A DNA stretch of 64,000 nucleotides, taken from positions 195,749-259,748 of the forward strand of contig JBMNFG010000011.1 of assembly GCA_050949175.1 (NCBI GenBank), read 5' to 3'. The position numbers were made by a program, and so were the translations under genes. Origin of the DNA: Bacillota bacterium. Lineage in GTDB: Bacteria; Bacillota; SHA-98; UBA4971. How positions within the stretch are numbered: the first letter of the stretch is position 1; each line of letters starts with the position of its first letter. Under the pieces are notes generated by a model. That model saw nothing but the letters and a program-made list of their open reading frames with translations, searched no databases and was not told the DNA's origin. This document shows positions 6,489-54,860 of this stretch, in pieces.

Positions 6489-6650
6489 AGTTTCTTCATC
6501 TCCTAAGTTGGACGCATCCCCTACTTTAACAAAAACCTTCATCTGCCGCAAGATACAGAGTCCGGTCTTCGTGTCCCTGTCATACTGCTTTGCCATTGCG
6601 ACACCGCAGGACGACGCCCCATTTATTATCGTCGATCTTTTCGGTGTTCG

Positions 6651-6980
6651 CTAGTAGGGTACCGCAGCCTCACCACAGTCCAGTGTCCGCCACTAGGGTA
6701 CCACAGTCCACAGCCCGGTCTCCTCTAGTAGGGTACCAGAACCGGTGTCATCTAGTAGAGTACCACAGCCCTGTGTCCGCCAGCAGGGTACCACAGTCCA
6801 CAGCCCGGTCTCCTCTAGTAGGGTACGTGAGCTCGTTGTCCTCTAGTAGAGCACCATAGTTCGGTGTCCTGTAGTAGAGTACCACAGCCCAGTGCCCTCT
6901 AGTAGAGTACCACAGCCCAGTGTCCTGTAGTAGGGTACCAGAGCCCAGTGTCCTGTAGTAGGCTATCACAGCCCGATAGC
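6651..6980. repeat. tandem array B: about 10 units of about 30 bp (CTAGTAGRGTACCACAGYCCAGTGTCCTG)
   Basis: Direct reading. Lies immediately upstream of the MATE start codon. Confidence 0.9.
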
Positions 6981-7064
6981 TACAAAAAGCGGCAGAAATC
7001 TAACTACATTTCCTCATCCAACCACACTTCCTTACATCGCCGGCCGGATTTGGGCCACCTCTTG

Positions 7065-7560
7065 AGATTTTTTCGGGCACATGCTCATAAGTGGTCTGTT
7101 TTCAACCACCTTTCCTCAAAGAGGTGCTTCAATTTCGACCACACTTTCCGATTTTTTCGAGCAAATGTTCATAAATGGGAGATTTTGAACCACCAAAACC
7201 GGCTCAGGTGGTAGAGATTCGACCACATTTTCAGGTTGTAGGCGGGTTTTGGGAGCTTTTTCGGGCTTAGGTGGTAGATTCTCTACCACATTTTCTAAGA
7301 ACGTGGCAGTTTTTCGCCCACCTTTTCAGAAAATGTGGGCGAGTTTCGACCACCAAACCGTGATTTGTAAGATTATGGGAGGCGCGGTGGTCGATATTCT
7401 ACCACCTTAACGCCTGATCATGGTAGAAAACCTTCCACCTTTAGGCCTCCTGGTGGGCGAAACTCTACCATTTTAGAGCTTACGCTCAAAACTGTGGTCG
7501 AAAAGCTGCCACCAAAAGGCGTTAAGGTGGTTGGTTTTCGACCACTCCAGCCCGTATGCC
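7065..7560 (-). repeat. dispersed hairpin-array element, copy 1 (inverted relative to copies 2 and 3)
   Basis: The reverse complement of 7300-7380 matches 38180-38260 almost base for base. The element is built of 20-nt hairpin cores GGTGGTMGA-N4-TCKACCACC. Confidence 0.88.
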
Positions 7561-8058
7561 TAGGCATTGGTGTATCGACGCATGCCTCGACGCCAGTATA
7601 TTGACAAATGCCCAGGCGCCAGTATATTAACGGATGCCTATGTGCCAGCGTATTGAGGTATACCTAGGCGTTAGTATATTAACGCGTGCCTAGGCGTTGG
7701 AGTGTTGACGAATGCATAGGCATTGGTGAATAGACGCATGTCTAATCGTCAGTGTATTGACGCAGGCATAGGCGTTAGTGTGTTCACGCATTGCTAGGCG
7801 ATAGCGATCGACTCAGGCCTAGTATGCCTAGGCATTGACATGTTGATGCGTGCCTAGGCGATACTGTATTGACGCATGCGGAGCATACCTAAGCGCTAGT
7901 GTATTGGCGCATTCCTAGGCCATACTTCATTGACGCAGACCTAGCATGCGTAGACGCTAACGTATCGACACGTGCCTAGGCGCCGGTGTATCGACACATG
8001 CATAGTCACTGGTGTATTGACGCATGCATAGGCTTTGGTGTATTGACGCATGCCTAGG
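7553..8058. repeat. tandem array C: about 17 units of about 30 bp (GCATGCCTAGGCGTTAGTGTATTGACGCAT)
   Basis: Direct reading. Abuts copy 1 of the dispersed element and the 3' end of the A2M-like gene. Confidence 0.9.
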
Positions 8059-11000
8059 GAGTGTATGCCACTGCGTGGATAGGTTTATAATAGTCTTCCG
8101 ATATCAGCTCCCGGACAACTGTGCCGCCTGTGTCAATAGTCCGCCAGACTGCAACCCGGATTCCAGGCTTTCCGGCGGAAATCTTCTCATTTTCGGAGTT
8201 GCCGCCTGCCATGAGTCTGGGCCTTTCTACATTCAAGACTTCCCGCGTCACCTCCACTTGCCTCTTGGCTAAAAGACCAGCCTTTACCTCGACGGTAAGT
8301 CTCGGTCCCTCTGTGCGTGCACTTATAGTCACCGGGACATCCAGTTGGTTCTTGAACCGCAAGTCAAGCCCGCTTTCTTCACTGATCGTAGCATCAAAGC
8401 CCGGTGGCACATAGTCTACAGGCTGTGAGTGCGGGTGACGCTCGACTATCTCCAGCCCCGCCCTGAGAACCGCGTTATATAGCGTAGTCGACACCTGGCA
8501 GATACCTCCTGCCACTCCTGGCACGCTCTTGCCTCCTGAGATCACCCTGGCTTCTTTGTACCCCTGCGCCTCAAGCCTCGGCCCTAATACCTTGTCCAAA
8601 GAAAACACTTCTCCGGGCTGGAGCACAAATCCGTCAATAGCCTGCGCAGCAAGGGCGATGTTGTGATTCCTATTCAATTCTGGCTCTTTAACAGTAGTAG
8701 AAAAACCCGCTAAGGTAGGCATCTCAACAACTATATCGTGGCTCCTGGAAGCACCGTATACGTCAGGCAAGTACATCCCCCACGCCATAGTCGGCATCAC
8801 CTTGTATTCTCCAGGCCGTTCAGCCCTCATGGAATACACTATCTCGTTCTCGCCCTCATCAAGATAAGTGCTGAAGATCGCTACTTTCTCATCGCGGATT
8901 TCTTTCTGCGCAAACCAGAAATCCCAGCTGTAGCGGTCAACCGGCTTATCGATCACTTCAAATCCTGACGGAAGGGGATCCTCAATCATGATGTACGTGC
9001 GAGGCCTATCCGTTCTCACGGTGAGCCTGACTATAATCTCATCTCCCTGATTCACACGGCCTGTAATCGGCTCAAAGGTGTTGCTTCCTTGGACTTTGCG
9101 GTAGTAATTGCGACTCACCTTCAGGCCGTTATCAACTTCTGCCATGGATTCAGACGGAGTCACGTACTTGCAGCTAACAGAGTAATAGAGCCTTCCCGTA
9201 CCCGTTTTCTTGACAACAAGTTCATTCTTGCCCGGAACCAATTGGCTCGGGTCTATCTCTATCACGCTCTCCTTATCCCATGCATTTTTCCCGGAAAACG
9301 CGATCCTTTCCACCTGTTTTCCATTGAGTGATACGTTTGCCGTTATATTTGACTTAATCTCCTCACGGAGCTTCATATACTCAGTTAGCGCCATTACGGC
9401 AATGGCAGTGTCTTTCGTAGATGTCCAGGCATTCCCCATGCGTGCTTCAGACAGCCACCTCACAACTTGCGGAGCCACAGGATGGTCAGGCTCTACAGCC
9501 AGTATTGCCAAAAGGGCATATGCAGTAGTCTCAATCCGATTGTCGGCCCAGTACCACTCCTCCTGTGACGCATCCCAGTAAGTCCTCGCGTTATCACCGC
9601 GAGCACGCTGCAAGAGGTCGCCAAGGACTATCCTTGCATCATCAAGCCTCTCCACGTTCTTCAAAGTCAGAGTAAGGAGAGCCAGAGAATAGTTGGAAAG
9701 CTCCTCGCGCCTCACGATCATCTCATCAAGACGGGGCAGGAACCTCTCTCCGACCTCAGACATAATGAACAAGTTGTATACCAGGTCATCAACGCTTTTC
9801 GGCTTGTTAAGGAATACGCCAAGTGCCCTCTTGCCTCGCATTAAAACGCCGTCATCTACGTGGTAACCTGCTTTCTTTGCGAGATTGAGGCCATACACTA
9901 CGTACGCAGTTGTCCTTGCTTTAGGCTCGTCATATCCCCACCAGCCCCAGCCGCCTTCCCAGTGCTGATACTTGTATAACCGGGCAAGGCCTGCGTTTAC
10001 CATATCCGGAAGGTCCTTCTCAATCTCAGGCATCTCAATGCCCAGTTCACGAAGGGTATTGGAAACGATAATGTTAGGCAGGAACGAGTTCATCGTCTGC
10101 TCGGTACAGCCGTACGGATAGGACGTTAGATATTCTAGAGCTCCTAAAGCAGTGGCAGCCACAGAAGGTGCAAGCCTGACTTCCACATTCAATGTGTTAT
10201 CTATTACATCTTCCGGAACATCAAATACGATTTTCACTTCTCCGTCTTCTGCCGGGTCTTTCCCTACCTCGCCGCCATCAAATACCTGAACCTGGTTACC
10301 AAAGGGCAGCACGGAAACGTTAAGCTCCAGAGCATCACTGAGTCTTCCTGCACTTGCTGACGCAGTAAACTTAGCAACACCTACTGTGTCGCATTTGATC
10401 TTCCAGTTAAGTGTAGCCTGCGCGCCGGGAGCCAGGTCTACTCCTCGCTCTTTCCCATCAACCAAGGCGACCCCTTCTGCTTTGAGGCTGACCTTGGCGT
10501 TTATTTGCCTGTCAGTATAGTTGTGGACGATTGTAGATATATAAGTAGTATCGCCCAGCCTGAAGAACCTAGGCACAGCCATCCTGACAATAAGGTCCTT
10601 CGTGGTCTTCACGTCACGCGTAGCGGACCCCACTTGGGTAGCCAATGTATGGCCTCTGACAGTTGCCCTCCATGTAGTTAAGGAATCAGGCATGGTGAAA
10701 CTGACTTTCGCTGTGCCTTTTCTGTCAGTCATAACTACAGGCGCCCAAAAGGCTGTATCCGGAAAATCCCTTCGGACATCTGAGTCACCTGCCTCCTTGT
10801 CTGCGCCTCCATAGTACCACCGCGGGAAAGAGTAGTTTGTCATAATCTGGTTCCATATCGACCCGTAGAATGCTTTCCGGATATCAGGTGCAAGCTCGCC
10901 CTGGATGGCATAAATCGATGCGTCCACAACTCCTATTGAGACTTCAGCCTGCACGGGACGGCCTGCATGGTCCAGCGTCTTAATGGTATAGGAAGCCCGC

Positions 11001-13084
11001 TCGCCAGGGCTATAAGTCTCTTTGTCCGGAGTAATGGATATATCAAGGAAGTTCTCTTTTACTGAAACATACATCACCTTTTCCTGCATATAAAGCTGTT
11101 TCCCACGGACAAAAGTGACTGTAAAGAACGAGTTAGGACTGAATTCCTGGGTTATGGGGATCTCAAACAGCCTCGTATGTCCTGTGAGCTCAACCACTTC
11201 CCAGGAGGCTAAGTCGCGCCCTTCAATGGTAATCAATGCCCAAACATGGTCAAACGTTGTATTCACAAGGACCTTTGCAACATCACCTATCTCATAGACA
11301 TCCTTGTCAGTAATGATCTCGATTTCAGTCCCGCCGTAACTGGACCAGCTCCCTTCATAGCCGGCTACCCAGACGTACGCTTCCTCAACAATGCGGTTCC
11401 CTCTTTCGTCAACCCCAGAGACTTCCACCAGGTAAGACCCTTCTTCTTTCGGAGTAAACTCGAACTCCGCCTTCCCGTCCTTACCTGTGGATACCTTCCC
11501 TGATTGCTCCTTCCACCTGATGGATTTGTCCCCATCCCAGGTTTCCTTCATGCTTTGCCATTCAAGATCTACGGCATGAGGTTGGCCGTCTATGGTCTCT
11601 GCTTTTATAAGAATCTTTGAAGGCTCTCCGGGAGGTACTACGTATTTGGCAGGCTGGACAGTTATATCGAAAAGGCCTCGAGAGAGAATCACTGACGACC
11701 TTCCCGTAACCTCCCTTAAACTCTCATCAGTCACGGTTGCTTCTAAATACAATCTCTGAGACCTCTGGATCTTATCTGTCTTTATAGTAAACTGCATGGT
11801 TCCGTCATCTGACGTAACACCTTCGCCTGAATCTACAAGCTCGCCATAATACCCGTAACCCGCGTCGAAAACAGGATAATAGCCCAGGTCTTCTGTGGAG
11901 TAATAACTACGCCAGTACGGTTGGGCGTACACGGCGTACTTTACCTTTGCGCCGGCAACAGGTTTGCCGAAGTAGTAATTAGCTGAAATCCTGGCAGATA
12001 TCTCATCCCCTGCCACATAAATGTCCTTGTCAGCAGTGACTGTGACCTCATACTCCGGCTTCCTGTATTCAGCCACTTTAAACCAGCCATTATGCGTGCT
12101 TCCACACACATTGACAAGGACCCGGTAATCACCTAAAGAAGGCTCATCTCCTAGGGTAAGTTCTCCTGTAACAGAGCCGTACTTGTTGGTCTTAGTGTCT
12201 GCCCTGTAAATAACCGCATCCGTTGAATCTCTAACCTCAATTGTGACTTCTTCATCAGCCAAAACTTCAAAAACTCCGCCTTTATCTTCACGAAGAATGC
12301 CTTTAATCGATACCTTCTGACCCGGCCTGTATATCGGCCGGTCAGTGTAGATATACACCTTATAACGGGCATCTTCCCAGTACCTCCAAGAACTTATCTG
12401 TGCAAAACTGACGCCATCGTCCTCTTCCCGGACACCGAGTATGAACATTTCTCCCCTGGGAGTGCCGGTAAGATCAAAAGCGAAGAGCCCGTCGCGATCT
12501 GTGGTTCCCTCTCCGATGATTTCCCTGTTTTCGTTGTATATGGTAATCCTGGCGCCTTCACACGGGGCCTCCTTGCTGAAGGTGTAGGCGTAGACCAAGA
12601 GTTTACCCTCACCTTGTTTAGTCACGAGCCCAAGGTCTGTTACAATAAACCAGTCGCTGGCTTCACGTCCTTCACTGTCTCTGGCCGTGACCATGTACAC
12701 TCCTTTACCCTCGGACCCGATTCCCGGATCTACCCTGAATCCCGATCCTGCCGGGCCTTGACGAGGACGTTCCCAGAACTCCCGAACCAGTACTGCGTCT
12801 TCCGGCATAACCTGCTCAGTTAAGGATAATGACCCGTGCTGTCTAAAAAACGCTTCTGCATCGAATTTCCAGACAGAAAAGTCAACTCTGGTAGCACCCT
12901 CGCTCCTCACGCGGATCAGGGGCGTCTCAGCCGGTGTATTAACCCGTACGTCTGAGTCCACGTACAAGTGACCTTCAGCTGCTTTGCTGTCTACCGGAAA
13001 CGAGCGTAGAGCAAAAGCCAGTCCGATAAAGAAAGCCACGATTACACCTGTTACAAATAAATTCCGATGACGCTGTGTTTTCAT
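8054..13084 (-). CDS. alpha-2-macroglobulin family protein with intact thioester motif, fused to a C-terminal VanW domain
   Basis: 1676 aa. N-terminal signal anchor and a large beta-rich MG-domain region. YPYGCTEQ (CxEQ thioester) at about residue 950, then a receptor-binding-like domain. Last about 170 aa carry the VanW signature GGICQVSTTLYNAVLRAGLEIVERHPHSQPVDYVPPGFDATI. Confidence 0.72.
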   Translation of the reverse strand: MKTQRHRNLFVTGVIVAFFIGLAFALRSFPVDSKAAEGHLYVDSDVRVNTPAETPLIRVRSEGATRVDFSVWKFDAEAFFRQHGSLSLTEQVMPEDAVLVREFWERPRQGPAGSGFRVDPGIGSEGKGVYMVTARDSEGREASDWFIVTDLGLVTKQGEGKLLVYAYTFSKEAPCEGARITIYNENREIIGEGTTDRDGLFAFDLTGTPRGEMFILGVREEDDGVSFAQISSWRYWEDARYKVYIYTDRPIYRPGQKVSIKGILREDKGGVFEVLADEEVTIEVRDSTDAVIYRADTKTNKYGSVTGELTLGDEPSLGDYRVLVNVCGSTHNGWFKVAEYRKPEYEVTVTADKDIYVAGDEISARISANYYFGKPVAGAKVKYAVYAQPYWRSYYSTEDLGYYPVFDAGYGYYGELVDSGEGVTSDDGTMQFTIKTDKIQRSQRLYLEATVTDESLREVTGRSSVILSRGLFDITVQPAKYVVPPGEPSKILIKAETIDGQPHAVDLEWQSMKETWDGDKSIRWKEQSGKVSTGKDGKAEFEFTPKEEGSYLVEVSGVDERGNRIVEEAYVWVAGYEGSWSSYGGTEIEIITDKDVYEIGDVAKVLVNTTFDHVWALITIEGRDLASWEVVELTGHTRLFEIPITQEFSPNSFFTVTFVRGKQLYMQEKVMYVSVKENFLDISITPDKETYSPGERASYTIKTLDHAGRPVQAEVSIGVVDASIYAIQGELAPDIRKAFYGSIWNQIMTNYSFPRWYYGGADKEAGDSDVRRDFPDTAFWAPVVMTDRKGTAKVSFTMPDSLTTWRATVRGHTLATQVGSATRDVKTTKDLIVRMAVPRFFRLGDTTYISTIVHNYTDRQINAKVSLKAEGVALVDGKERGVDLAPGAQATLNWKIKCDTVGVAKFTASASAGRLSDALELNVSVLPFGNQVQVFDGGEVGKDPAEDGEVKIVFDVPEDVIDNTLNVEVRLAPSVAATALGALEYLTSYPYGCTEQTMNSFLPNIIVSNTLRELGIEMPEIEKDLPDMVNAGLARLYKYQHWEGGWGWWGYDEPKARTTAYVVYGLNLAKKAGYHVDDGVLMRGKRALGVFLNKPKSVDDLVYNLFIMSEVGERFLPRLDEMIVRREELSNYSLALLTLTLKNVERLDDARIVLGDLLQRARGDNARTYWDASQEEWYWADNRIETTAYALLAILAVEPDHPVAPQVVRWLSEARMGNAWTSTKDTAIAVMALTEYMKLREEIKSNITANVSLNGKQVERIAFSGKNAWDKESVIEIDPSQLVPGKNELVVKKTGTGRLYYSVSCKYVTPSESMAEVDNGLKVSRNYYRKVQGSNTFEPITGRVNQGDEIIVRLTVRTDRPRTYIMIEDPLPSGFEVIDKPVDRYSWDFWFAQKEIRDEKVAIFSTYLDEGENEIVYSMRAERPGEYKVMPTMAWGMYLPDVYGASRSHDIVVEMPTLAGFSTTVKEPELNRNHNIALAAQAIDGFVLQPGEVFSLDKVLGPRLEAQGYKEARVISGGKSVPGVAGGICQVSTTLYNAVLRAGLEIVERHPHSQPVDYVPPGFDATISEESGLDLRFKNQLDVPVTISARTEGPRLTVEVKAGLLAKRQVEVTREVLNVERPRLMAGGNSENEKISAGKPGIRVAVWRTIDTGGTVVRELISEDYYKPIHAVAYTP

Positions 13085-13091
13085 GGTTGCT

Positions 13092-13937
13092 TTACCCCCT
13101 TACGGGCAGAGTTTTCCCGAACTTTTCTGTTTCAAAGACATATAACTCGAACGGAGTCTGAGCTCCTATACCTGCTTCCCGCATAGCCCATTCCTTTTGA
13201 TATTTGCTTGTCCTGGCCTCACCCGGCAGTATTACCCCGGAGCGCCCACTTGTCTTTATCAGAATCCCTTCCAAACGCGGGTTAACTATCACATCGGGAC
13301 TCTCTCTTCTGACCCGTCCTACAACAGATACGCAAAACTCGAGGTTATCAAGGTCTTCCGCTGTTATCGGAGGATGGCGGATGTCCATGGTAGCAGCCAT
13401 CCGGGCTGCCCTCTTAATCTCTTCATATAAGTTGGGCTCGCCGGGATAAATCCTTCCCATACATCCCCTGACTTTGTTGTCAATTATTATCGTAACGAAC
13501 ACGCCCGCTTGAATGCTCTTAAGGGGGCTTGACGAGGATTTGTCGGCATCATTCTCGCTTGGCCCCGGCTTTTCGCCCAGGACCACGCGGGTTACAGACC
13601 TTCCGGCAATATCCAGAATCTCCTGTTCCAAAGCAGGCGAGCGCAATGCTCTCAGCCTGTCCAAAGGGTCGCTTCCTTGAAAGATCGGAGATGCTTCGCC
13701 AAGCCGAGAGGGACTTTCCTCATCCGGCCTCTGCTCCTCTAGCGGTGATTTCAAAGATAAAGAATCCAGCCCTCCACGGCCTTCTCCTTGAACACCGTGG
13801 GGGCTGTATGAAGCCTTAAGAATGAAGAGGCCTACAATAATCAGGAAAGCAGTGATGCAACTAATAGTTACCCGTCTATTGCCAGGCTTCCCCCGGCCTT
13901 GCGAAGTCACAGAATCCAAAGCTCCTTTTTCAAGCAA
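13092..13937 (-). CDS. membrane-anchored AMMECR1-domain protein
   Basis: 281 aa. Basic N-terminus, one TM helix (ITAFLIIVGLFIL), a Pro/Ser/Glu-rich linker, then the AMMECR1 core GVFVTIIIDNKVRGCMG...DIRHPPITAEDLDNLEFCVSVVG. Only 8 bp downstream of the A2M-VanW gene. Confidence 0.68.
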   Translation of the reverse strand: MLEKGALDSVTSQGRGKPGNRRVTISCITAFLIIVGLFILKASYSPHGVQGEGRGGLDSLSLKSPLEEQRPDEESPSRLGEASPIFQGSDPLDRLRALRSPALEQEILDIAGRSVTRVVLGEKPGPSENDADKSSSSPLKSIQAGVFVTIIIDNKVRGCMGRIYPGEPNLYEEIKRAARMAATMDIRHPPITAEDLDNLEFCVSVVGRVRRESPDVIVNPRLEGILIKTSGRSGVILPGEARTSKYQKEWAMREAGIGAQTPFELYVFETEKFGKTLPVRG

Positions 13938-14140
13938 GACGGTCTTTTTCGGTTGAACGTAATTACCTGTGAGTTCAGTTCTATTCGTCTATGCTCGATT
14001 CCTTCCCAATTCCCTATGTAAACCTTATAAATTTTGGATCTTAATTCGTAAATAAGGTTTTTTGCCCTCTCCGACATAGTAACGTCCATTATACGTTGGA
14101 ATAACATGTTGTGAGGAAGACTTATGAAGGGAGAATCATT

Positions 14141-15001
14141 ATGATTACATATATAGTCCAACCCGGTGATACCCTTGCCTTAATCGCACAACGCTTCGGT
14201 TCTACAGTGCAGTCAATCGTCTCCACAAACAACATATCTGACCCGAACCTTATTTTTGTGGGACAGGTACTGCAGATACCGGTGGCAGGTGCACCGCCGA
14301 CTGCGACTCCGCCTACTACGCCGGCACCACCTACTCCTGCCCCTACACCGCCGTCGATTACAGTCCCTGACGGCTTCAGGCTCTACATTGTACAGCCTGC
14401 AGATACCCTGGCTGAGCTCGCAAGACGCTTCGGGACGACTGTTCAGGTCCTGGTTTCGGTAAACCGCATCCCTGATATAAACCTGATAACTGTGGGACAG
14501 GTCTTGTTTGTTCCCATAAGGCCGATTACAGTTGTGCCTGTGCCGCCGCCCAGTCCGCCGACACCGCCGGCACCGCCTACTCCACCTACACCTCCGGGAC
14601 CGCCTGTCACCGGAGTGAACCAGGTTTCCCTGGTCCAAGGCGGGCTTAGGCATACTTTCATGGTAAGTAGGACAACATTTTCACGGGGTGAGCCTGTCAG
14701 GCTGAGCCTCAGCAAGACGAATGTCACAGGATCCCCTGTGTCCATCACTTACAGAGGAAGCCAAAGATATGACTTTATCGTTACACGGGCAGGCAGAGAG
14801 ATTTGGCGGTGGTCTGAAGGGCGCTTCTTCACATTTGCTATCGAAACAATCTCTGTAGCCCCGGGAGAGCGTCTCCTCCACATACAGATATGGAATCAGA
14901 CTACAAACCGCGGAGTTCCGGTGTCTCCGGGAGTCTATACTGTCACAGCAGTTAACACAGGGACAGGAGTGAGGCTTAGCATTCAAATCGAGATTAGATG
15001 A
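14141..15001 (+). CDS. LysM-LysM protein with Pro/Thr-rich linkers and a C-terminal beta-rich domain (possibly BsuPI-like protease-inhibitor fold)
   Basis: Two LysM repeats ([17 protein letters not shown]..., [17 protein letters not shown]...) and PT-rich linkers. ATG at 14141 with a GGGAGA RBS; the ORF is also open from a GTG at 14111. Confidence 0.72.
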
Positions 15002-49606: not shown

Positions 49607-50998
49607 ATGAACTCATCCGCCGGCCAACTGCACAGAGACTCCGGAATGTTCCACGTAACTCTGGATCCTGAAGGACCCGGTGTAATCAGGCTCCATTTGA
49701 GAAGGGCGGAGAAGAACTTGTGGAACCTCTTAGGAAAGCCGAGACTGTCTAAGCTATGGATCAACGGAACCCAGCTCCTTCTGCTTGAAGATTCAGCAGC
49801 AGATATAGTTCAGTCCATCATAGAGACGGCCCAAGATGAAACGCGCCCCGGGGAAGAGGTTTCTTTGGAGAGTTGGCGCAAGATCAAAAAAGAAATCGGA
49901 AAGAGAGTTCAGAATCTTTATCCGCGAACCCCTATTTCGCGGATTGAAGAAGATATCGATTATATATACGGATTGATTGTGGAATTATCTAAAGGCGCGT
50001 GTCCGAAAGATTTAGGAATAGAAGGCCAGATAATCGATTATGAGGAATGGCATATCCCCGCCAGGATGGACCTTATGATCTCGTCAATGAAGGGTTCAGG
50101 CTGCCAGAATGCGTGCTCATGGTGTTATGCAGCTGATATGCCTGATATACCTGAGCTGGACACCGATTCCTGGAAAAAGGTCCTGGATATGCTATGGGAA
50201 ATCGGTATCCCGCATATAGATTTCACCGGAGGAGAGCCGACAACAAGGTCTGACCTGATTGAACTCATAGAGTATGCCGAAAGATTCGTAACAGGCCTCA
50301 TAACCAACGGAAGAGCCATACCGCACCTTGCGAAAGATTTAAAGAGGGTAAGTTTAGATTACATCCAGATAAGCATAGAATCAGCTGACCCTAAGATCCA
50401 TGATAAGATTGTCAACTCGCCGGGGGCATGGAAGGAGACGGTCAGCGGAATCCGGGCCGCTCTCGATGAAGGGCTTTATACATCCACCAATACGACCCTT
50501 ACGCGGGAGAACGCAGATGGTTTCCCTGAGCTCATTCGGTTTCTTGCAGATCTGGGTGTCCGCTACATCGGATGCAACAGCCTGATTAAAACAGGCGGAG
50601 GGCGAAACCACAAAGATGCCATGGATGAGGCTGAGCTCGAAGCAATCCTCAAGAAGGCTGTTGATGTTGCAGATGAACTTAAGCTTGAACTTAGCTGGTT
50701 TACACCCACGTGCTACCTGAAGCTGAATCCTGTTAACCTTGGGTTAGGAGCCAAATCCTGTTCAGCATGCACAACTAATATGGCAATAAGGCCTGACGGA
50801 GTGGTGGTGCCTTGCCAGTCATGGCTGCACGATGAAGGTCTCGGCAACATCCTCGAGGAGCCATGGGAGAGGATCTTCAACCATCCCCTTGCACGCAGGA
50901 TAAGAGCACATGAACTCAAGGACCCAAAGTGCGGCGATTGCCCGCACCTTGCTGTGTGTGGTGGCGCTTGTCAGATAGAACAAGTCTTGCCTAAGTGA
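49607..50998 (+). CDS. radical SAM protein with C-terminal SPASM-like Cys-rich domain and an about 150-aa N-terminal extension
   Basis: CQNACSWC (Cx3Cx2C) at about residue 165; C-terminal CSACTT...PCQSW...KCGDCPHLAVCGGACQ. Confidence 0.78.
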   Translation: MNSSAGQLHRDSGMFHVTLDPEGPGVIRLHLRRAEKNLWNLLGKPRLSKLWINGTQLLLLEDSAADIVQSIIETAQDETRPGEEVSLESWRKIKKEIGKRVQNLYPRTPISRIEEDIDYIYGLIVELSKGACPKDLGIEGQIIDYEEWHIPARMDLMISSMKGSGCQNACSWCYAADMPDIPELDTDSWKKVLDMLWEIGIPHIDFTGGEPTTRSDLIELIEYAERFVTGLITNGRAIPHLAKDLKRVSLDYIQISIESADPKIHDKIVNSPGAWKETVSGIRAALDEGLYTSTNTTLTRENADGFPELIRFLADLGVRYIGCNSLIKTGGGRNHKDAMDEAELEAILKKAVDVADELKLELSWFTPTCYLKLNPVNLGLGAKSCSACTTNMAIRPDGVVVPCQSWLHDEGLGNILEEPWERIFNHPLARRIRAHELKDPKCGDCPHLAVCGGACQIEQVLPK

Positions 50999-51105
50999 TG
51001 TGCAGGGAAACGAAAAGCGGAAACGAAAGGCTGCACGAAACCCAGATGCTGCGCAAAACCTAAGTCGCGGTCACGCACAGGATCTAAGAGAAAGAGGTTA
51101 TTATA

Positions 51106-52266
51106 ATGGGAAAAAGCCTCCCTCATACAAGACATATAACATGGATCCGTATATGTATCTTCCTCGCAGTCTTCTGCTGCGTTCTCACGCTTCCGGTATT
51201 TGCAGATACCGGCACCTATAAGATAAAAGACTATGCAGTAGAGATAACCCCCCAGCCTGACGGCAGCTGGGTGGCTTACTATACTCAAGAATGGGAAGTG
51301 CTCAGCGGATCGATTCCTTGGGTTACCGTAGGCCTGCCTAACGCAAACTATGAAGTGATTTCTTGGACCGGCGCAGCAACCCAAGTGAAGCCTGACAACC
51401 AGGGTGCGTGGAGCGGGGTTTACGTCCAACTGGATAATGACTACAGAAGGGGAGAAAGCTTCAATTTCGGGTTTAAGGTGATTCAGCAGAGAGTCGCCTA
51501 CCCCAAAGAAGGTTCACACGTGGAGTTTTCCTTCACTCCCGGTTGGTACGATAACAGTCCGGTTGAGCGCATGACGATTACTTTAGATAACCCCTGGTCG
51601 CCGGAGGATTTAAGATATACATCCCCTACCCCTACGGAGCAGCACGACAATAAGGTCGTATGGGTGACATCTCTCAGGCCGGGTCAGCGCTTCAACGTCG
51701 ATTTCGCGTTTTCACCTGAAGTCTTCACCGAACTCCGGCAGACTCCAAGGGGATCTATGCCAGGGGCATCCGGTGAGGGCGAAGAAATGTTCGATGCTGC
51801 CATCATCGGCTTTATCATCCTTTTCATTTTTATCTTGCTATTCCTTATAATTATCAGCGCCATCTTAAGAAGCCGTCGAAGGTATTACCGCCCGAGACGT
51901 GGAATTTACTATGGGACTCCTAAGCCTTTCGTTGCACCTGTACCTGCCGTTCCGGGCACAAGACTACGAAGGGTGCCAGGTAAGAAGGGAGAGTCTCCTA
52001 AGTCGGGAGATTCCAAGAAATCCGGAAGCGGAGGCGGTGGTTTCGGCGGTAGATCTAGCGGGTGTTATTGCGTATCGTGCGCATGTGCCTGCGTATCATG
52101 TGCATGCGCATGTGCGTGCGCAGGAGGGCGAGGAGCAGGTTGTGCACAGAAGTTCAGCCGGATGGGCTTAACTGATAAACGAGACACAAAGGCAGAGATC
52201 GCCCGGAAGAACACAGAGGCCGCTTGGAAGAACCATGAGACGGAAACAGAAAGAGCTGACATGTGA
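51106..52266 (+). CDS. DUF2207-like membrane protein (signal peptide, extracellular domain, TM helix, low-complexity C-tail)
   Basis: Architecture plus the Gly-rich tail GSGGGGFGGRSSG. The tail continues into an unusual Cys/Ala stretch CYCVSCACACVSCACACACA. Confidence 0.65.
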   Translation: MGKSLPHTRHITWIRICIFLAVFCCVLTLPVFADTGTYKIKDYAVEITPQPDGSWVAYYTQEWEVLSGSIPWVTVGLPNANYEVISWTGAATQVKPDNQGAWSGVYVQLDNDYRRGESFNFGFKVIQQRVAYPKEGSHVEFSFTPGWYDNSPVERMTITLDNPWSPEDLRYTSPTPTEQHDNKVVWVTSLRPGQRFNVDFAFSPEVFTELRQTPRGSMPGASGEGEEMFDAAIIGFIILFIFILLFLIIISAILRSRRRYYRPRRGIYYGTPKPFVAPVPAVPGTRLRRVPGKKGESPKSGDSKKSGSGGGGFGGRSSGCYCVSCACACVSCACACACAGGRGAGCAQKFSRMGLTDKRDTKAEIARKNTEAAWKNHETETERADM

Positions 52267-52934
52267 TGAACACCCACATGACACGTGTCAAACGGACTTC
52301 GCCTGACTTCGTAGGCGTGAAAACACCGCAATCTGTGGATTTTGCCAGGCTCTTATGGTTTCTCCTGGTTACAGCCTTGATCGTAGTCACAGTGTCAGGA
52401 TGCGGGTTTATCAAGAACGCTCAACAATCCCCCGGCGGGACACCGGATATGCCTTATGACGAAAACGTTGAAGTCCCGTCAGGAGACCCTGATTTCCCCC
52501 CGCTAGGGCAGTACTGGGTAGTCGACCCTGACGGCCTCGTAGGGATATCAGCCATCCGGATGGCAGATGAAACACTTGACGACCTGAAATCTCAACGCAT
52601 AGCCGAAGTGGTAATAGTCGTCCAAAAAGGTGTCAAGCATCCGGTTGAGTGGTCCACGCATTACGGTAGATGGCTCCGGCTGGGTGAAGCTGAAGGCCCA
52701 CATCAGAATAATGGTCTTGTATTCTTGATAATACCTGATGCGCCTGGCAGCTCAGGCAGAGTTTGGTATAGTATCGGCAGAGGCTTGCCGAAGTTGACAT
52801 CTTCTGATATGGGACCTCTCCTTGAAGAGGCAGCTTCATACGCTAATGCCGATGATTTGGACGGAGCGGTAATATCCATCGCAAGGAATATCCATGACAT
52901 TCTCCTGAAGATATATGGGAGGGGAGCGCAATGA
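52263..52934 (+). CDS. TPM-domain (TLP18.3/Psb32-like phosphatase) lipoprotein
   Basis: Lipobox VTVSGC. The TPM core runs VVIVVQKG...LVFLIIPDAP...RVWYSIGRGL. 4-bp overlaps with both neighbouring genes. Confidence 0.68.
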   Translation: MMNTHMTRVKRTSPDFVGVKTPQSVDFARLLWFLLVTALIVVTVSGCGFIKNAQQSPGGTPDMPYDENVEVPSGDPDFPPLGQYWVVDPDGLVGISAIRMADETLDDLKSQRIAEVVIVVQKGVKHPVEWSTHYGRWLRLGEAEGPHQNNGLVFLIIPDAPGSSGRVWYSIGRGLPKLTSSDMGPLLEEAASYANADDLDGAVISIARNIHDILLKIYGRGAQ

Positions 52935-53566
52935 GAAGAGGTTGCCTCTTTGGGGCAATAATAGGCATTGTAATCTTAGTTATCGTTATCTCCGGATTCT
53001 CCTGGATAATGGGGATACAAAGGACCTTGGTACAGCGGCAGCAATCTGTATTGGCTCAAGAAGGCCGGTACGGAGCTGCTCTTGAGACTCTCAGCGAAAA
53101 AATCAAAGGAATATGGGCAATTCAAAGGGATTTCCTTGAACACGAAAAAGATACGCTCACCGATGTAATAAGAGCAAGGGCCGAAGCCTTGGACCGTTCA
53201 GGCCAGGAGTTTGCAGCTGCAGTAGCTGAAGGGGATCCTGACAAGACTATAGAAGCAGCAAACAGGTTCCAGGAAGCAACCCGTGGGCTCGCGCTGTCTG
53301 TGGATGTCGTTGCTCTTCAAGAAGCCTATCCGCAACTGTTTTCCCCTCCAATAGTGCAACAGACCATGCGAGGCCTTGAAGAAGCCGTTAATGAGATTCG
53401 CACAGCTCTCGATGACTGGCAAGTGGCGATCCGAACATACAACACCTATCGAGGACAATGGCCTCAGAGCTTCGTAGCAGGTTTCCTGGGCTTCCCCGAG
53501 TCTTACGACTACTACAAGGCTGAAAAAGCCAAGCTGGACATGGATAAGCTTATGCCTTCCAGATAG
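52931..53566 (+). CDS. lemA: LemA family protein
   Basis: N-terminal TM helix and a LemA core (RAEALDRSGQEFAAAV...NTYRGQWPQSFVAGFLGF). Confidence 0.85.
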   Translation: MRRGCLFGAIIGIVILVIVISGFSWIMGIQRTLVQRQQSVLAQEGRYGAALETLSEKIKGIWAIQRDFLEHEKDTLTDVIRARAEALDRSGQEFAAAVAEGDPDKTIEAANRFQEATRGLALSVDVVALQEAYPQLFSPPIVQQTMRGLEEAVNEIRTALDDWQVAIRTYNTYRGQWPQSFVAGFLGFPESYDYYKAEKAKLDMDKLMPSR

Positions 53567-53639
53567 AAGGAAGGATATGGTGGGATAGAAGATAGGCTTA
53601 CCTGGCCTACCTACTATAAACAAGAAAGGGTGATTAGGG

Positions 53640-54860
53640 TTGACGAGTACCGTAGTTGAGCTCACCGGGCATATTATTGATTCGAGGAGCCTTCCTAAGG
53701 TGCTGGACGTCATTATCGAGCGAGGCGGCGACTTCGACATCGAAGAACTCAAAGTAGGTAGGAAGAACAATGACCCTAGCTATGCCAGGATAATGATTGA
53801 AGCAGAAAGTCAGGAAGCCCTGGACATGATACTTGAAGAAATAAGACGTTTGGGTGCTGTTGAAATGCATCTGGATGAGGCAGAGGTAGAACCGGCACCG
53901 AAAGACGGAGTATTTCCGGACAACTTCTATTCCAGCACTAACCTGGAGACATTTTTGAAGATTCGTGGTTCATGGATCCCTGTAGATGACATTGAGATGG
54001 ATTGCGGCATTGTCGTTGATTTCTCAGGGGACCCCCCCACAGCTCGCTGCGTGCCTCTGGGCAACATAAAGAAAGGCGACATGGTAGTTGTCGGAGGAAA
54101 AGGAATCAAAGTGATTCCCCTTGAGAAATCCAGGAAACGAGAGGTATTCAGTTTCATGGGGAGTGAAGTGTCCAGTGAGCGCCCTAAGGCCTTGGCTTTA
54201 GCAAGCATCGCTGAGACAATGAAAGACATCAGGTCCCGCAATAAGAAGATCCTTGCAGTTGTAGGGCCTGCAGTTATCCATACAGGCGCAGGCAGGCATC
54301 TTTCCGCGCTTATTGACGCAGGCTATATCAATGTACTGTTCGGCGGAAATGCCGTAGCAACCCATGACGTGGAATGGGCCTTGCTGGGAACCTCCCTCGG
54401 CGTTTATCTGGACACAGGGATTGCAGCTCCTGCAGGGCATACCCACCATATTAAGGCGATTAACACAATCCGAAAGTACGGAAGCTTTGAAAAAGCTGTA
54501 GAAGCAGGCGTGCTTACTAAGGGGATCATGTATTCATGTGTCAAGAACGGAATAGACTACGTCCTTGCAGGATCAATACGAGACGATGGGCCGATGCCGG
54601 GTGTCATCACTGATTCGGCAGAAGCTCAAGATGCAATGCGCCGTTGCCTGAAAGATGTGGAGTTAGCGCTGATGCTGTCTACAATGCTGCACTCCATAGC
54701 CACAGGCAATCTGCTGCCGGGAAAGGTCAAGACGGTGTGTGTCGATATAAACCCTGCTACCGTTACAAAGCTGGTAGACCGCGGCAGCCACCAGGCTGTG
54801 GGGGTAGTAAGTGACGTAGAGCTGTTCTTGAAAGAACTGGCGTATCAACTTATAGGGTAG
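53640..54860 (+). CDS. LOR/SDH-conserved-region (TIGR00300) family protein, archaeal-type ornithine-cyclodeaminase-like
   Basis: 406 aa. The N-terminus MTSTVVELTGHIIDSRSLPKVLDVI and the overall length fit the family. Assigned from memory of the family, not from a search. Confidence 0.5.
   Translation: MTSTVVELTGHIIDSRSLPKVLDVIIERGGDFDIEELKVGRKNNDPSYARIMIEAESQEALDMILEEIRRLGAVEMHLDEAEVEPAPKDGVFPDNFYSSTNLETFLKIRGSWIPVDDIEMDCGIVVDFSGDPPTARCVPLGNIKKGDMVVVGGKGIKVIPLEKSRKREVFSFMGSEVSSERPKALALASIAETMKDIRSRNKKILAVVGPAVIHTGAGRHLSALIDAGYINVLFGGNAVATHDVEWALLGTSLGVYLDTGIAAPAGHTHHIKAINTIRKYGSFEKAVEAGVLTKGIMYSCVKNGIDYVLAGSIRDDGPMPGVITDSAEAQDAMRRCLKDVELALMLSTMLHSIATGNLLPGKVKTVCVDINPATVTKLVDRGSHQAVGVVSDVELFLKELAYQLIG

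Follow-up and report, generated by a model that had tools for sequence, protein, structure and literature searches.

A thioester macroglobulin fused to a VanW domain and paired with a predicted extracytoplasmic AMMECR1 protein in uncultured Bacillota

The DNA examined here is a stretch of 64,000 nucleotides from a Bacillota bacterium (assembly GCA_050949175.1, contig JBMNFG010000011.1, positions 195,749 to 259,748), which we call the window and number from its first nucleotide. It encodes a 1676-residue protein in which a thioester-containing alpha-2-macroglobulin (A2M) continues directly into a VanW domain, and, just upstream in the same apparent operon, an AMMECR1-domain protein that is predicted to be membrane-anchored with its domain outside the cell. 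Our comparisons show that the fusion is a derived form, found in one clade of uncultured Bacillota, of an older operon in which AMMECR1, the macroglobulin and VanW are encoded by three separate genes, and is not itself the basic unit. The original prediction with which we compare these results was a reading made from the sequence alone.

The fusion gene and the AMMECR1 gene form an apparent operon

Three open reading frames (ORFs) are mapped at the locus: 8054-13084 on the minus strand (1676 aa), 13092-13937 on the minus strand (281 aa) and 14111-15001 on the plus strand (296 aa). The first is the A2M-VanW fusion gene (8054..13084, assigned from the ORF map and Pfam), and a protein identical to its product is public (P0121 in our set). 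The second is the AMMECR1 partner gene, most likely 13092..13910: the ORF extends to a TTG at 13937, and the likely start of the 272-residue product is the GTG at 13910, which has AAGGAG 11 nt upstream, is conserved in relatives and is identical to the JGI call for the protein P0241. The third is a divergently transcribed LysM gene. The Pfam E-values of the domains at this locus are far beyond chance.

The original prediction had rightly seen an AMMECR1-domain protein adjoining the fusion but had placed it 8 bp downstream. Because both large genes lie on the minus strand, AMMECR1 is in fact the upstream gene: its TAA stop codon is followed by a 7-nt spacer and then by the ATG of the A2M-VanW gene, whose ribosome-binding site (GGGGG) sits within the end of the AMMECR1 gene. 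The short spacer and the position of the ribosome-binding site argue for a single operon, and the layout, judged from these signals, is that of a translationally coupled one.

Pfam annotation of the neighbors found no penicillin-binding protein (PBP) gene adjoining the locus, and a VanW domain stands in that place. In NCBI metagenome-assembled genomes (MAGs) and at JGI, proteins of the 90%-identity cluster to which the fusion protein of the window belongs are named "VanW family protein", "hypothetical protein" or "YfaS". PADLOC returned 0 matches for the three locus proteins, and the locus is therefore no known anti-phage system. Genes for SpoIIE, FtsH, TilS and AddAB also lie in the window, and the host is an endospore-forming member of the Bacillota.

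The macroglobulin part retains the thioester and its pocket

From N- to C-terminus, Pfam finds bMG3, MG2, MG3, A2M_BRD (residues 588-726), A2M (777-867), TED_complement, bMG10 (1320-1441) and VanW (1471-1600) in the 1676-residue protein. This order, together with the motifs described below, bears out the A2M layout with macroglobulin (MG) domains and a GCTEQ thioester that had been read from the sequence. Residues 509-1450 align to the structures of E. coli ECAM/YfhM and Salmonella A2M (5a42, 4ziq, 4rtd and 4u48) with E-values of about 1e-31. Pfam and this structural-homolog alignment place the MG-domain array, the bait-region domain (588-726) and the A2M domain (777-867) at 10484..12973 (minus strand). 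The bait-equivalent loop is short, covering approximately residues 755-776 (about 10757-10822) just ahead of FPDTAFW.

The thioester domain (Pfam; 9377..10297, minus strand) contains YPYGCTEQ at residues 989-996 (window positions 10097-10120), in which GCTEQ spans residues 992-996 and the thioester cysteine is Cys993. The CxEQ pocket motifs of bacterial A2Ms have been defined as a tyrosine pair, RDDR and ExMY (PMC4498604). All three have counterparts here: two tyrosines precede the GC of YPYGCTEQ, as in the shielding pair of bacterial A2Ms, and the C-terminal MG domain (bMG10; 8762..9127, minus strand) carries IRDEK (1396-1400) and WGMY (1435-1438) in place of RDDR and ExMY. CxEQ is retained in every complete A2M of groups I, II and IV of the loci that we compared, and in locus L004.

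Residues 1-37 (MKTQRHRNLFVTGVIVAFFIGLAFALRSF; 12974..13084, minus strand) read as an N-terminal signal-anchor or signal peptide; as this hydrophobic helix has no lipobox cysteine, it does not look like a lipoprotein anchor. A hydrophobic N-terminal segment also starts the homologous A2Ms of all groups. In group II (L031-L051), unlike in the window protein, that segment contains a lipobox-like LxAC or ITAC, and the group II macroglobulins may be lipoproteins. Among fused orthologs, one (L008) has an insertion of approximately 170 nt near the bMG10 region (10642-10814 of that locus), giving an ORF of 1743 aa; indel hot spots in the ortholog alignment follow residues 942, 948, 1335 and 1628.

The VanW part is a full-length, conserved domain

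That the protein ends in a VanW domain is clear: residues 1471-1600 (8285..8674, minus strand) match PF04294 with an E-value of 7.6e-50 over profile positions 1-129 of 130, that is, as a full-length domain. It is joined to the macroglobulin by a structured junction of 29 residues (1442-1470; 8675..8761, minus strand) that is homologous to the segment preceding VanW in separate VanW proteins (FSTxxxxxxxNRxHNIALAA). The remaining 76 residues (1601-1676; 8057..8284, minus strand) form a G5-like C-terminal beta domain homologous to the region that follows VanW in PG_binding_4-VanW-G5 proteins. The last 215 residues as a whole are 40-55% identical to ordinary proteins of that type; the Pfam G5 match in the tail is weak (E-value 0.015, below cut-off), and PG_binding_4 is absent from the fusion.

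Two statements about VanW in the original prediction need revision. It had been called a normally stand-alone domain, whereas its usual architecture is PG_binding_4-VanW-G5, and a domain of unknown function, whereas Bollinger et al. (2024; PMC11348318) identified the VanW domains of C. difficile Ldt4 and Ldt5 as catalytic domains of L,D-transpeptidases (LDTs). These domains have a conserved Cys-His-Asp triad, make 3-3 cross-links and are inhibited by meropenem, and mutation of the cysteine abolishes transpeptidation (PMC11348318); a 2025 review treats VanW as the second LDT family (PMC12729407).

The same triad is present in the fusion as Cys1529 (GGICQ), His1552 (RHPHS) and Asp1564 (GFDAT), and it is invariant in an alignment of 40 sequences comprising the fusions and 26 diverse VanW proteins. 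Among 14 fusion orthologs the mean identity of the VanW domain is 0.77, compared with 0.52-0.75 for most of the macroglobulin domains; it is among the best-conserved segments of the protein and is therefore under purifying selection rather than being a decaying appendage. We infer that the fused VanW domain is an L,D-transpeptidase making 3-3 cross-links.

An AlphaFold2 model of residues 1312-1676 has a pLDDT of 88.3 and a pTM of 0.78, with most of the VanW core at 94-98. Beta strands run across the junction in this model, and the G5-like tail has long beta strands. Searching the PDB by sequence with the VanW-G5 part gave no match at E <= 1, and when the bMG10-VanW-G5 model was compared with the PDB by Foldseek, all matches were generic beta-sandwiches driven by the MG domain. 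Both results fit the published view that no relative of VanW has a solved structure.

The fusion is derived from a three-gene unit

When searched against 5.8 billion proteins, the full-length fusion protein recovered the identical sequence and 13 more clusters that carry the A2M families together with PF04294, at 56-80% identity over 97-100% of the length. All come from MAGs of uncultured Bacillota/Firmicutes, bar one labeled Betaproteobacteria. That contig (L015, JBLNCC010000119.1; protein P0131) nevertheless has Bacillota-type AMMECR1/A2M-VanW/LysM-BsuPI/MatE synteny, and it is probably mis-binned. The 90%-identity cluster of the window protein occurs on up to 488 contigs, the longest of 1.46 Mb, and the exact protein on up to 197. 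The species is abundant in anaerobic digesters. With residues 777-1676 as the query, phmmer found 35,917 macroglobulin relatives among 1.84 billion representatives; among the best 150 of these, 2 representatives extend into VanW and the others end where bMG10 ends, so the fusion is confined to one clade.

The neighborhoods of the fused orthologs share the order LysM-BsuPI (divergent), AMMECR1, A2M-VanW and MatE, but since the wider synteny is also conserved, this order alone could reflect relatedness. The more distant loci are therefore the informative ones. The nearest unfused A2M (P0135, 44% identity) lies in an unrelated neighborhood, with AMMECR1 upstream and, downstream, a separate VanW that has its own transmembrane (TM) helix and near-identical motifs. 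More distant AMMECR1 homologs (48% and 34% identity; L020 and L021) are again found directly upstream of an A2M followed by a stand-alone VanW, and beside loci of this type lie genes for a transpeptidase-only PBP, a protein with a SpoIID domain and a polytopic membrane protein of approximately 500 aa. This last protein has no Pfam match and recurs beside A2M-VanW (L020, 16067-17611; L021, 11764-13269; also L056, L058, L062 and L064).

Wider scans with AMMECR1 as the query gave the same picture. GTDB species genomes scanned with the AMMECR1 alignment yielded 13 loci, and in all 12 that extend far enough the fused gene is next to AMMECR1. The metagenome scan yielded 41 loci at 76-31% identity, 3 of them too short to judge; an A2M lies directly downstream of AMMECR1 in 35 of the 38 informative loci, and of the 21 that continue beyond the A2M, 20 have VanW as the following gene. 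The neighborhood comparison that had been proposed as a check thus supports AMMECR1 as a conserved partner. Three loci (L055, L057 and L059) have the same AMMECR1 signature and no A2M; the neighbors of L055 and L059 were checked and are unrelated.

In a stop-to-stop ORF test, VanW was fused only in the clade of the window and was a separate gene everywhere else: in the 15 metagenome loci tested, the VanW frame opens within about 140 nt of the A2M stop codon and begins with its own N-terminal TM helix. AMMECR1, A2M and a separate membrane-anchored VanW occur together in at least 4 other genomic contexts. Group II loci have only this triad in common with the other groups, and further conserved neighbors within group II are general synteny (CDF transporter-like, HAD-like and EamA-like genes, recognized by eye), none of them functionally suggestive. 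Because the triad is the sole common feature, AMMECR1, A2M and VanW are the ancestral unit, and the fusion arose from it in one clade of uncultured Bacillota, where VanW lost the anchor of its own.

Of 5 further distant macroglobulins sampled, 2 have a downstream VanW without AMMECR1, 2 have MagC upstream and 1 has none of these; one of the MagC-linked pair also has a transpeptidase-only PBP and SpoIID. Since both VanW pairs without AMMECR1 and flanking PBP and SpoIID genes occur, linkage of A2M to a peptidoglycan enzyme is a general theme: pairing with VanW is widespread, some of the pairs belong to an AMMECR1 triad, and some of the triads are fused.

The AMMECR1 partner is predicted to be extracytoplasmic

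The partner protein matches Pfam AMMECR1 with an E-value of 1.5e-24. Its N-terminus consists of a basic stretch (GRGKPGNRR) followed by an 18-residue hydrophobic helix, a putative TM or signal-anchor helix (VTISCITAFLIIVGLFIL; 13818..13871, minus strand) with a 17-residue Kyte-Doolittle mean of 2.69. This anchor is followed by a low-complexity linker and a conserved helix, which lead to the AMMECR1 core (13119..13544, minus strand), with RGCMG (13455-13469), DIRH (13374-13385) and the subfamily signature GVILPGEA (13215-13238). Such an N-terminal anchor, with a basic stretch and some 17-22 hydrophobic residues (Kyte-Doolittle mean 2.0-3.5), is present in about 50 of the 62 ortholog loci scored; in most of the remaining loci the contig ends early or the N-terminus escaped the scan. 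The hydrophobic anchor itself is not conserved in sequence. By the positive-inside rule, this topology would place the AMMECR1 domain on the same side as both of its partners, outside the cell, and the extracytoplasmic location proposed in the original prediction is accordingly our prediction as well.

Balaji and Aravind proposed the RGChG and DxR residues as the active site of AMMECR1 (PMC2034487). In the three alignments that we made, the cysteine of R[GA]CxG is invariant and the DxR motif is largely kept; the window protein has RGCMG and DIRH, with a histidine replacing the aromatic residue of the DxR-aromatic motif. The AlphaFold2 model of the protein has a pLDDT of 89.1, and Foldseek matched it only to the archaeal AMMECR1 structures 1zq7, 1vaj and 1wsc (probability 1.0), all of which are structural-genomics entries of unknown function.

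Two more specific assignments were considered and rejected. The protein is not AmmeMemoRadiSam protein A: it scores 73.7 bits against TIGR04335, for which the cut-off is 99, and has no Memo or radical SAM neighbors, the only radical SAM gene in the window being 36 kb away. Nor can AMMECR1 be there solely to service the thioester, because group III loci keep AMMECR1 although their macroglobulins lack both CxEQ and the MY motif. A third idea is speculative, and we put it forward as a doubtful one: the exported AMMECR1 might be a cysteine-dependent enzyme that acts either on the stem peptides of peptidoglycan or on macroglobulin and VanW, for example by supplying, editing or transferring the acyl donor of the LDT. 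If true, this would be the first biochemical function for a family that has been uncharacterized for two decades, and its chemistry would be on peptides or acyl groups rather than the proposed RNA modification.

Possible roles of the module

The domains and their catalytic motifs, the predicted topology, the operon, the linkage of its genes and the evolution from split to fused, all described above, lead us to propose, with moderate confidence, an envelope unit for "defence and repair" or for anchoring that parallels A2M-PBP1c and in which an LDT has replaced the class A PBP. The conditional elements of this proposal are that proteases are trapped, that VanW works as a transpeptidase and that AMMECR1 has a role. 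The N-terminal signal-anchor would keep the thioester A2M on the outer face of the cytoplasmic membrane, where it would trap proteases reaching the wall: cleavage of the bait loop would cause a conformational change, leading to covalent capture through the thioester. The VanW domain, carried on the C-terminal MG domain, would, by means of Cys1529, His1552 and Asp1564, enter a thioacyl intermediate with the tetrapeptide stem of peptidoglycan and would then make 3-3 cross-links, so that the trap would be kept at the wall and the local peptidoglycan reinforced or repaired. The exported, membrane-tethered AMMECR1 enzyme, with its conserved cleft cysteine, would act on or with A2M and VanW.

Several observations weigh against this proposal. 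Macroglobulins with a broad spectrum have variable baits, whereas the bait-equivalent loop of the window protein is short and lies in a stretch (residues 727-776) with a mean identity of 0.78 across the fused clade, which may point to a narrow range of targets. The group III macroglobulins (L019/L020, 10654-15303; L053, 7958-13204) have lost both CxEQ and the MY motif and yet keep VanW and AMMECR1, so covalent trapping cannot be essential to every version of the module. On the side of the enzyme, LDT activity was found in 3 of 7 heterologous VanW proteins tested (PMC11348318). Finally, the "repair" model for A2M-PBP1c that serves as our comparison is itself a hypothesis.

Rather unlikely in our view, although compatible with the defense-and-repair proposal rather than exclusive of it, is that the module serves anchoring and not repair. 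The VanW LDT would then serve mainly to fix the macroglobulin, free or in complex with a protease, to peptidoglycan by a covalent bond, making the wall a protease "flypaper", much as YkuD-type LDTs attach Braun lipoprotein (Lpp) or OutB, and the fusion would let this attachment act in cis. LDTs do attach proteins to peptidoglycan (PMC12729407, PMC12274547); in these modules VanW always adjoins the A2M and is either membrane-anchored or fused; and the acyl-enzyme intermediate of a fused LDT would in itself be a covalent link between A2M and peptidoglycan. However, no VanW enzyme is known to attach proteins, and the unfused A2Ms have no conserved C-terminal Lys/Arg acceptor, ending instead in SK, SR, SE, GE, EQ, VE or VR. 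We therefore rejected an Lpp-like C-terminal lysine of A2M as the LDT acceptor. The lack of a basic C-terminal residue does not favor a strictly Lpp-like mechanism and would be compatible with other mechanisms of attachment.

Still less probable, we think, is that the macroglobulin is no protease inhibitor at all but a spacer, scaffold or sensor that positions the LDT (elsewhere a transpeptidase-only PBP and SpoIID) within a wall-remodeling machine, which might be active in sporulation or cortex synthesis. The group III modules fit this idea in that they keep their other parts without a thioester, as do the SpoIID and PBP-transpeptidase genes that are co-operonic in groups III and IV, the endospore-forming host with SpoIIE in the window, and the LysM neighbor, which lacks a signal peptide and has sub-threshold matches to SafA and SpoVID. 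A passive scaffold, however, would hardly account for what the fused clade and groups II and IV have all conserved, namely the thioester, its Tyr-x-Tyr and MY pocket and the bait-region domain, and no sporulation promoter was recognized. A further point against this reading is that SpoIID-domain proteins also occur outside sporulation.

An assembly or frameshift error joining two genes that are adjacent and sometimes overlapping in relatives is so improbable that we dismiss it, because many independent assemblies exclude it: 14 clusters formed at 90% and over 20 loci, assembled independently of one another and spanning 56-100% identity, have the ORF uninterrupted, the TM helix of the separate VanW has been cleanly lost, the junction is conserved, and the exact protein is on up to 197 contigs.

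The LysM-BsuPI gene and other features of the window

The divergent gene had been described as encoding a LysM-LysM protein with a possible protease-inhibitor-like C-terminal domain, and Pfam finds LysM-LysM-BsuPI (LysM, 4e-30; BsuPI, 4e-22). The ORF runs from 14111, and the gene probably occupies 14141..15001 (plus strand), since from the ATG at 14141 the protein opens directly with its first LysM domain, as do all of its orthologs. It has no signal peptide, and it matches the NCBIfam models of the spore-coat proteins SafA and SpoVID only below threshold. Its inclusion in the same envelope module did not hold up: without a signal peptide, and found only in the fused clade while absent from L004 and groups II-IV, it is probably not a part of it.

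Between the divergent genes (13938..14140) lie two non-coding blocks, 13966-14040 and 14078-14119, candidates for a promoter or a leader, which are strongly conserved in close relatives and partly in L005. The -10 hexamer of a sigma-70-like match (14115-14088) that overlaps the second block is not conserved, and no sporulation-type promoter could be assigned in the conserved blocks.

On the other side of the operon, approximately 1.45 kb (6600-8054) between the MatE gene and the A2M-VanW stop codon contains no credible ORF; in relatives this gap is about 150-260 bp. It consists of three blocks of degenerate short repeats, in which Rfam found none of its families: a block with a 28-nt period (6641-6990), dispersed hairpins (GGTGGTAGAnnTTCnACCAC; 7050-7550) and a block with a 26-nt period (7556-8058) that reaches the A2M-VanW stop codon. 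Rfam (at gathering thresholds) and tRNA scans of the whole window likewise found nothing. A radical SAM/SPASM gene at 49607-50998, followed by four co-directional ORFs (49607-54860 in all), may belong to a peptide-maturation cluster; it lies 36 kb from the module and is unrelated to it.

Comparison with known systems

Bacterial macroglobulins have so far been discussed mainly as periplasmic proteins of Gram-negative bacteria paired with PBP1c. In many uncultured lineages, we find their genes coupled instead to VanW LDTs or to transpeptidase-only PBPs and SpoIID. In genomic terms, the fusion in one Bacillota clade argues strongly that protease trapping and the cross-linking of the wall would operate together; it lends support to the "defence and repair" idea, which could be tested here on one polypeptide. 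The predicted extracytoplasmic AMMECR1 subfamily, which is found almost exclusively with the A2M-VanW pair, likewise gives an experimental context to a family that includes a human disease gene. Because VanW LDTs are candidate antibiotic targets, unusual VanW architectures may also help to define the capabilities of the domain. Our full-text literature searches found no paper describing the fusion, as the original prediction had supposed, or the three-part module, and, apart from the known pairing with PBP1c, none linking AMMECR1 to bacterial macroglobulins, or macroglobulins to VanW, SpoIID or LD-transpeptidases.

The closest known relatives of the macroglobulin part are E. coli ECAM/YfhM and Salmonella A2M. 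As in those proteins, the MG domains, bait region, thioester domain and C-terminal MG domain occur in the same order in a membrane-anchored extracytoplasmic macroglobulin that has kept CxEQ, Tyr-x-Tyr and the MY pocket; and as with ECAM/YfhM and PBP1c, there is genetic coupling to an enzyme that cross-links peptidoglycan. A "trap protease, repair wall" role has long been proposed for the A2M-PBP1c (pbpC) pairing (PMC4498604, PMC7554673). The window protein differs in being held by a signal-anchor helix rather than as a lipoprotein, in having as its partner a VanW L,D-transpeptidase (3-3 links, Cys nucleophile) that is fused to the C-terminal MG domain, in its additional obligatory AMMECR1 partner, and in its host, a spore-forming member of the Bacillota rather than a proteobacterium.

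The VanW part resembles C. difficile Ldt4 and Ldt5 and B. subtilis YoaR, with the Cys-His-Asp triad followed by a G5-like region and 40-55% identity over about 215 residues. In the fusion, unlike in those proteins, a macroglobulin of 1450 residues replaces the TM helix and PG_binding_4 domains, and G5 falls below the Pfam threshold. The AMMECR1 protein shares its fold, the RGChG cysteine motif and the DxR motif with archaeal and eukaryotic AMMECR1 proteins (PH0010, 1vaj; MM0484, 1zq7; ST0229, 1wsc; human AMMECR1). It departs from them in its N-terminal membrane anchor, its low-complexity linker, GVILPGEA and its predicted location outside the cell, and it is linked to neither a Memo nor a radical SAM gene.

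Large macroglobulins also occur in multi-gene envelope operons in the case of Pseudomonas MagD and E. coli YfaS, and MagC-linked A2Ms are among the distant homologs of the window protein. MagD and YfaS, which are not known to carry a thioester, sit with MagA-F-type partners, whereas the gene in the window has a thioester and no Mag partners. Set against these systems, what was already known is the coupling of a bacterial macroglobulin to a peptidoglycan synthase; what is new is the LDT partner, its fusion to the macroglobulin and the predicted extracytoplasmic AMMECR1 subfamily that accompanies them.

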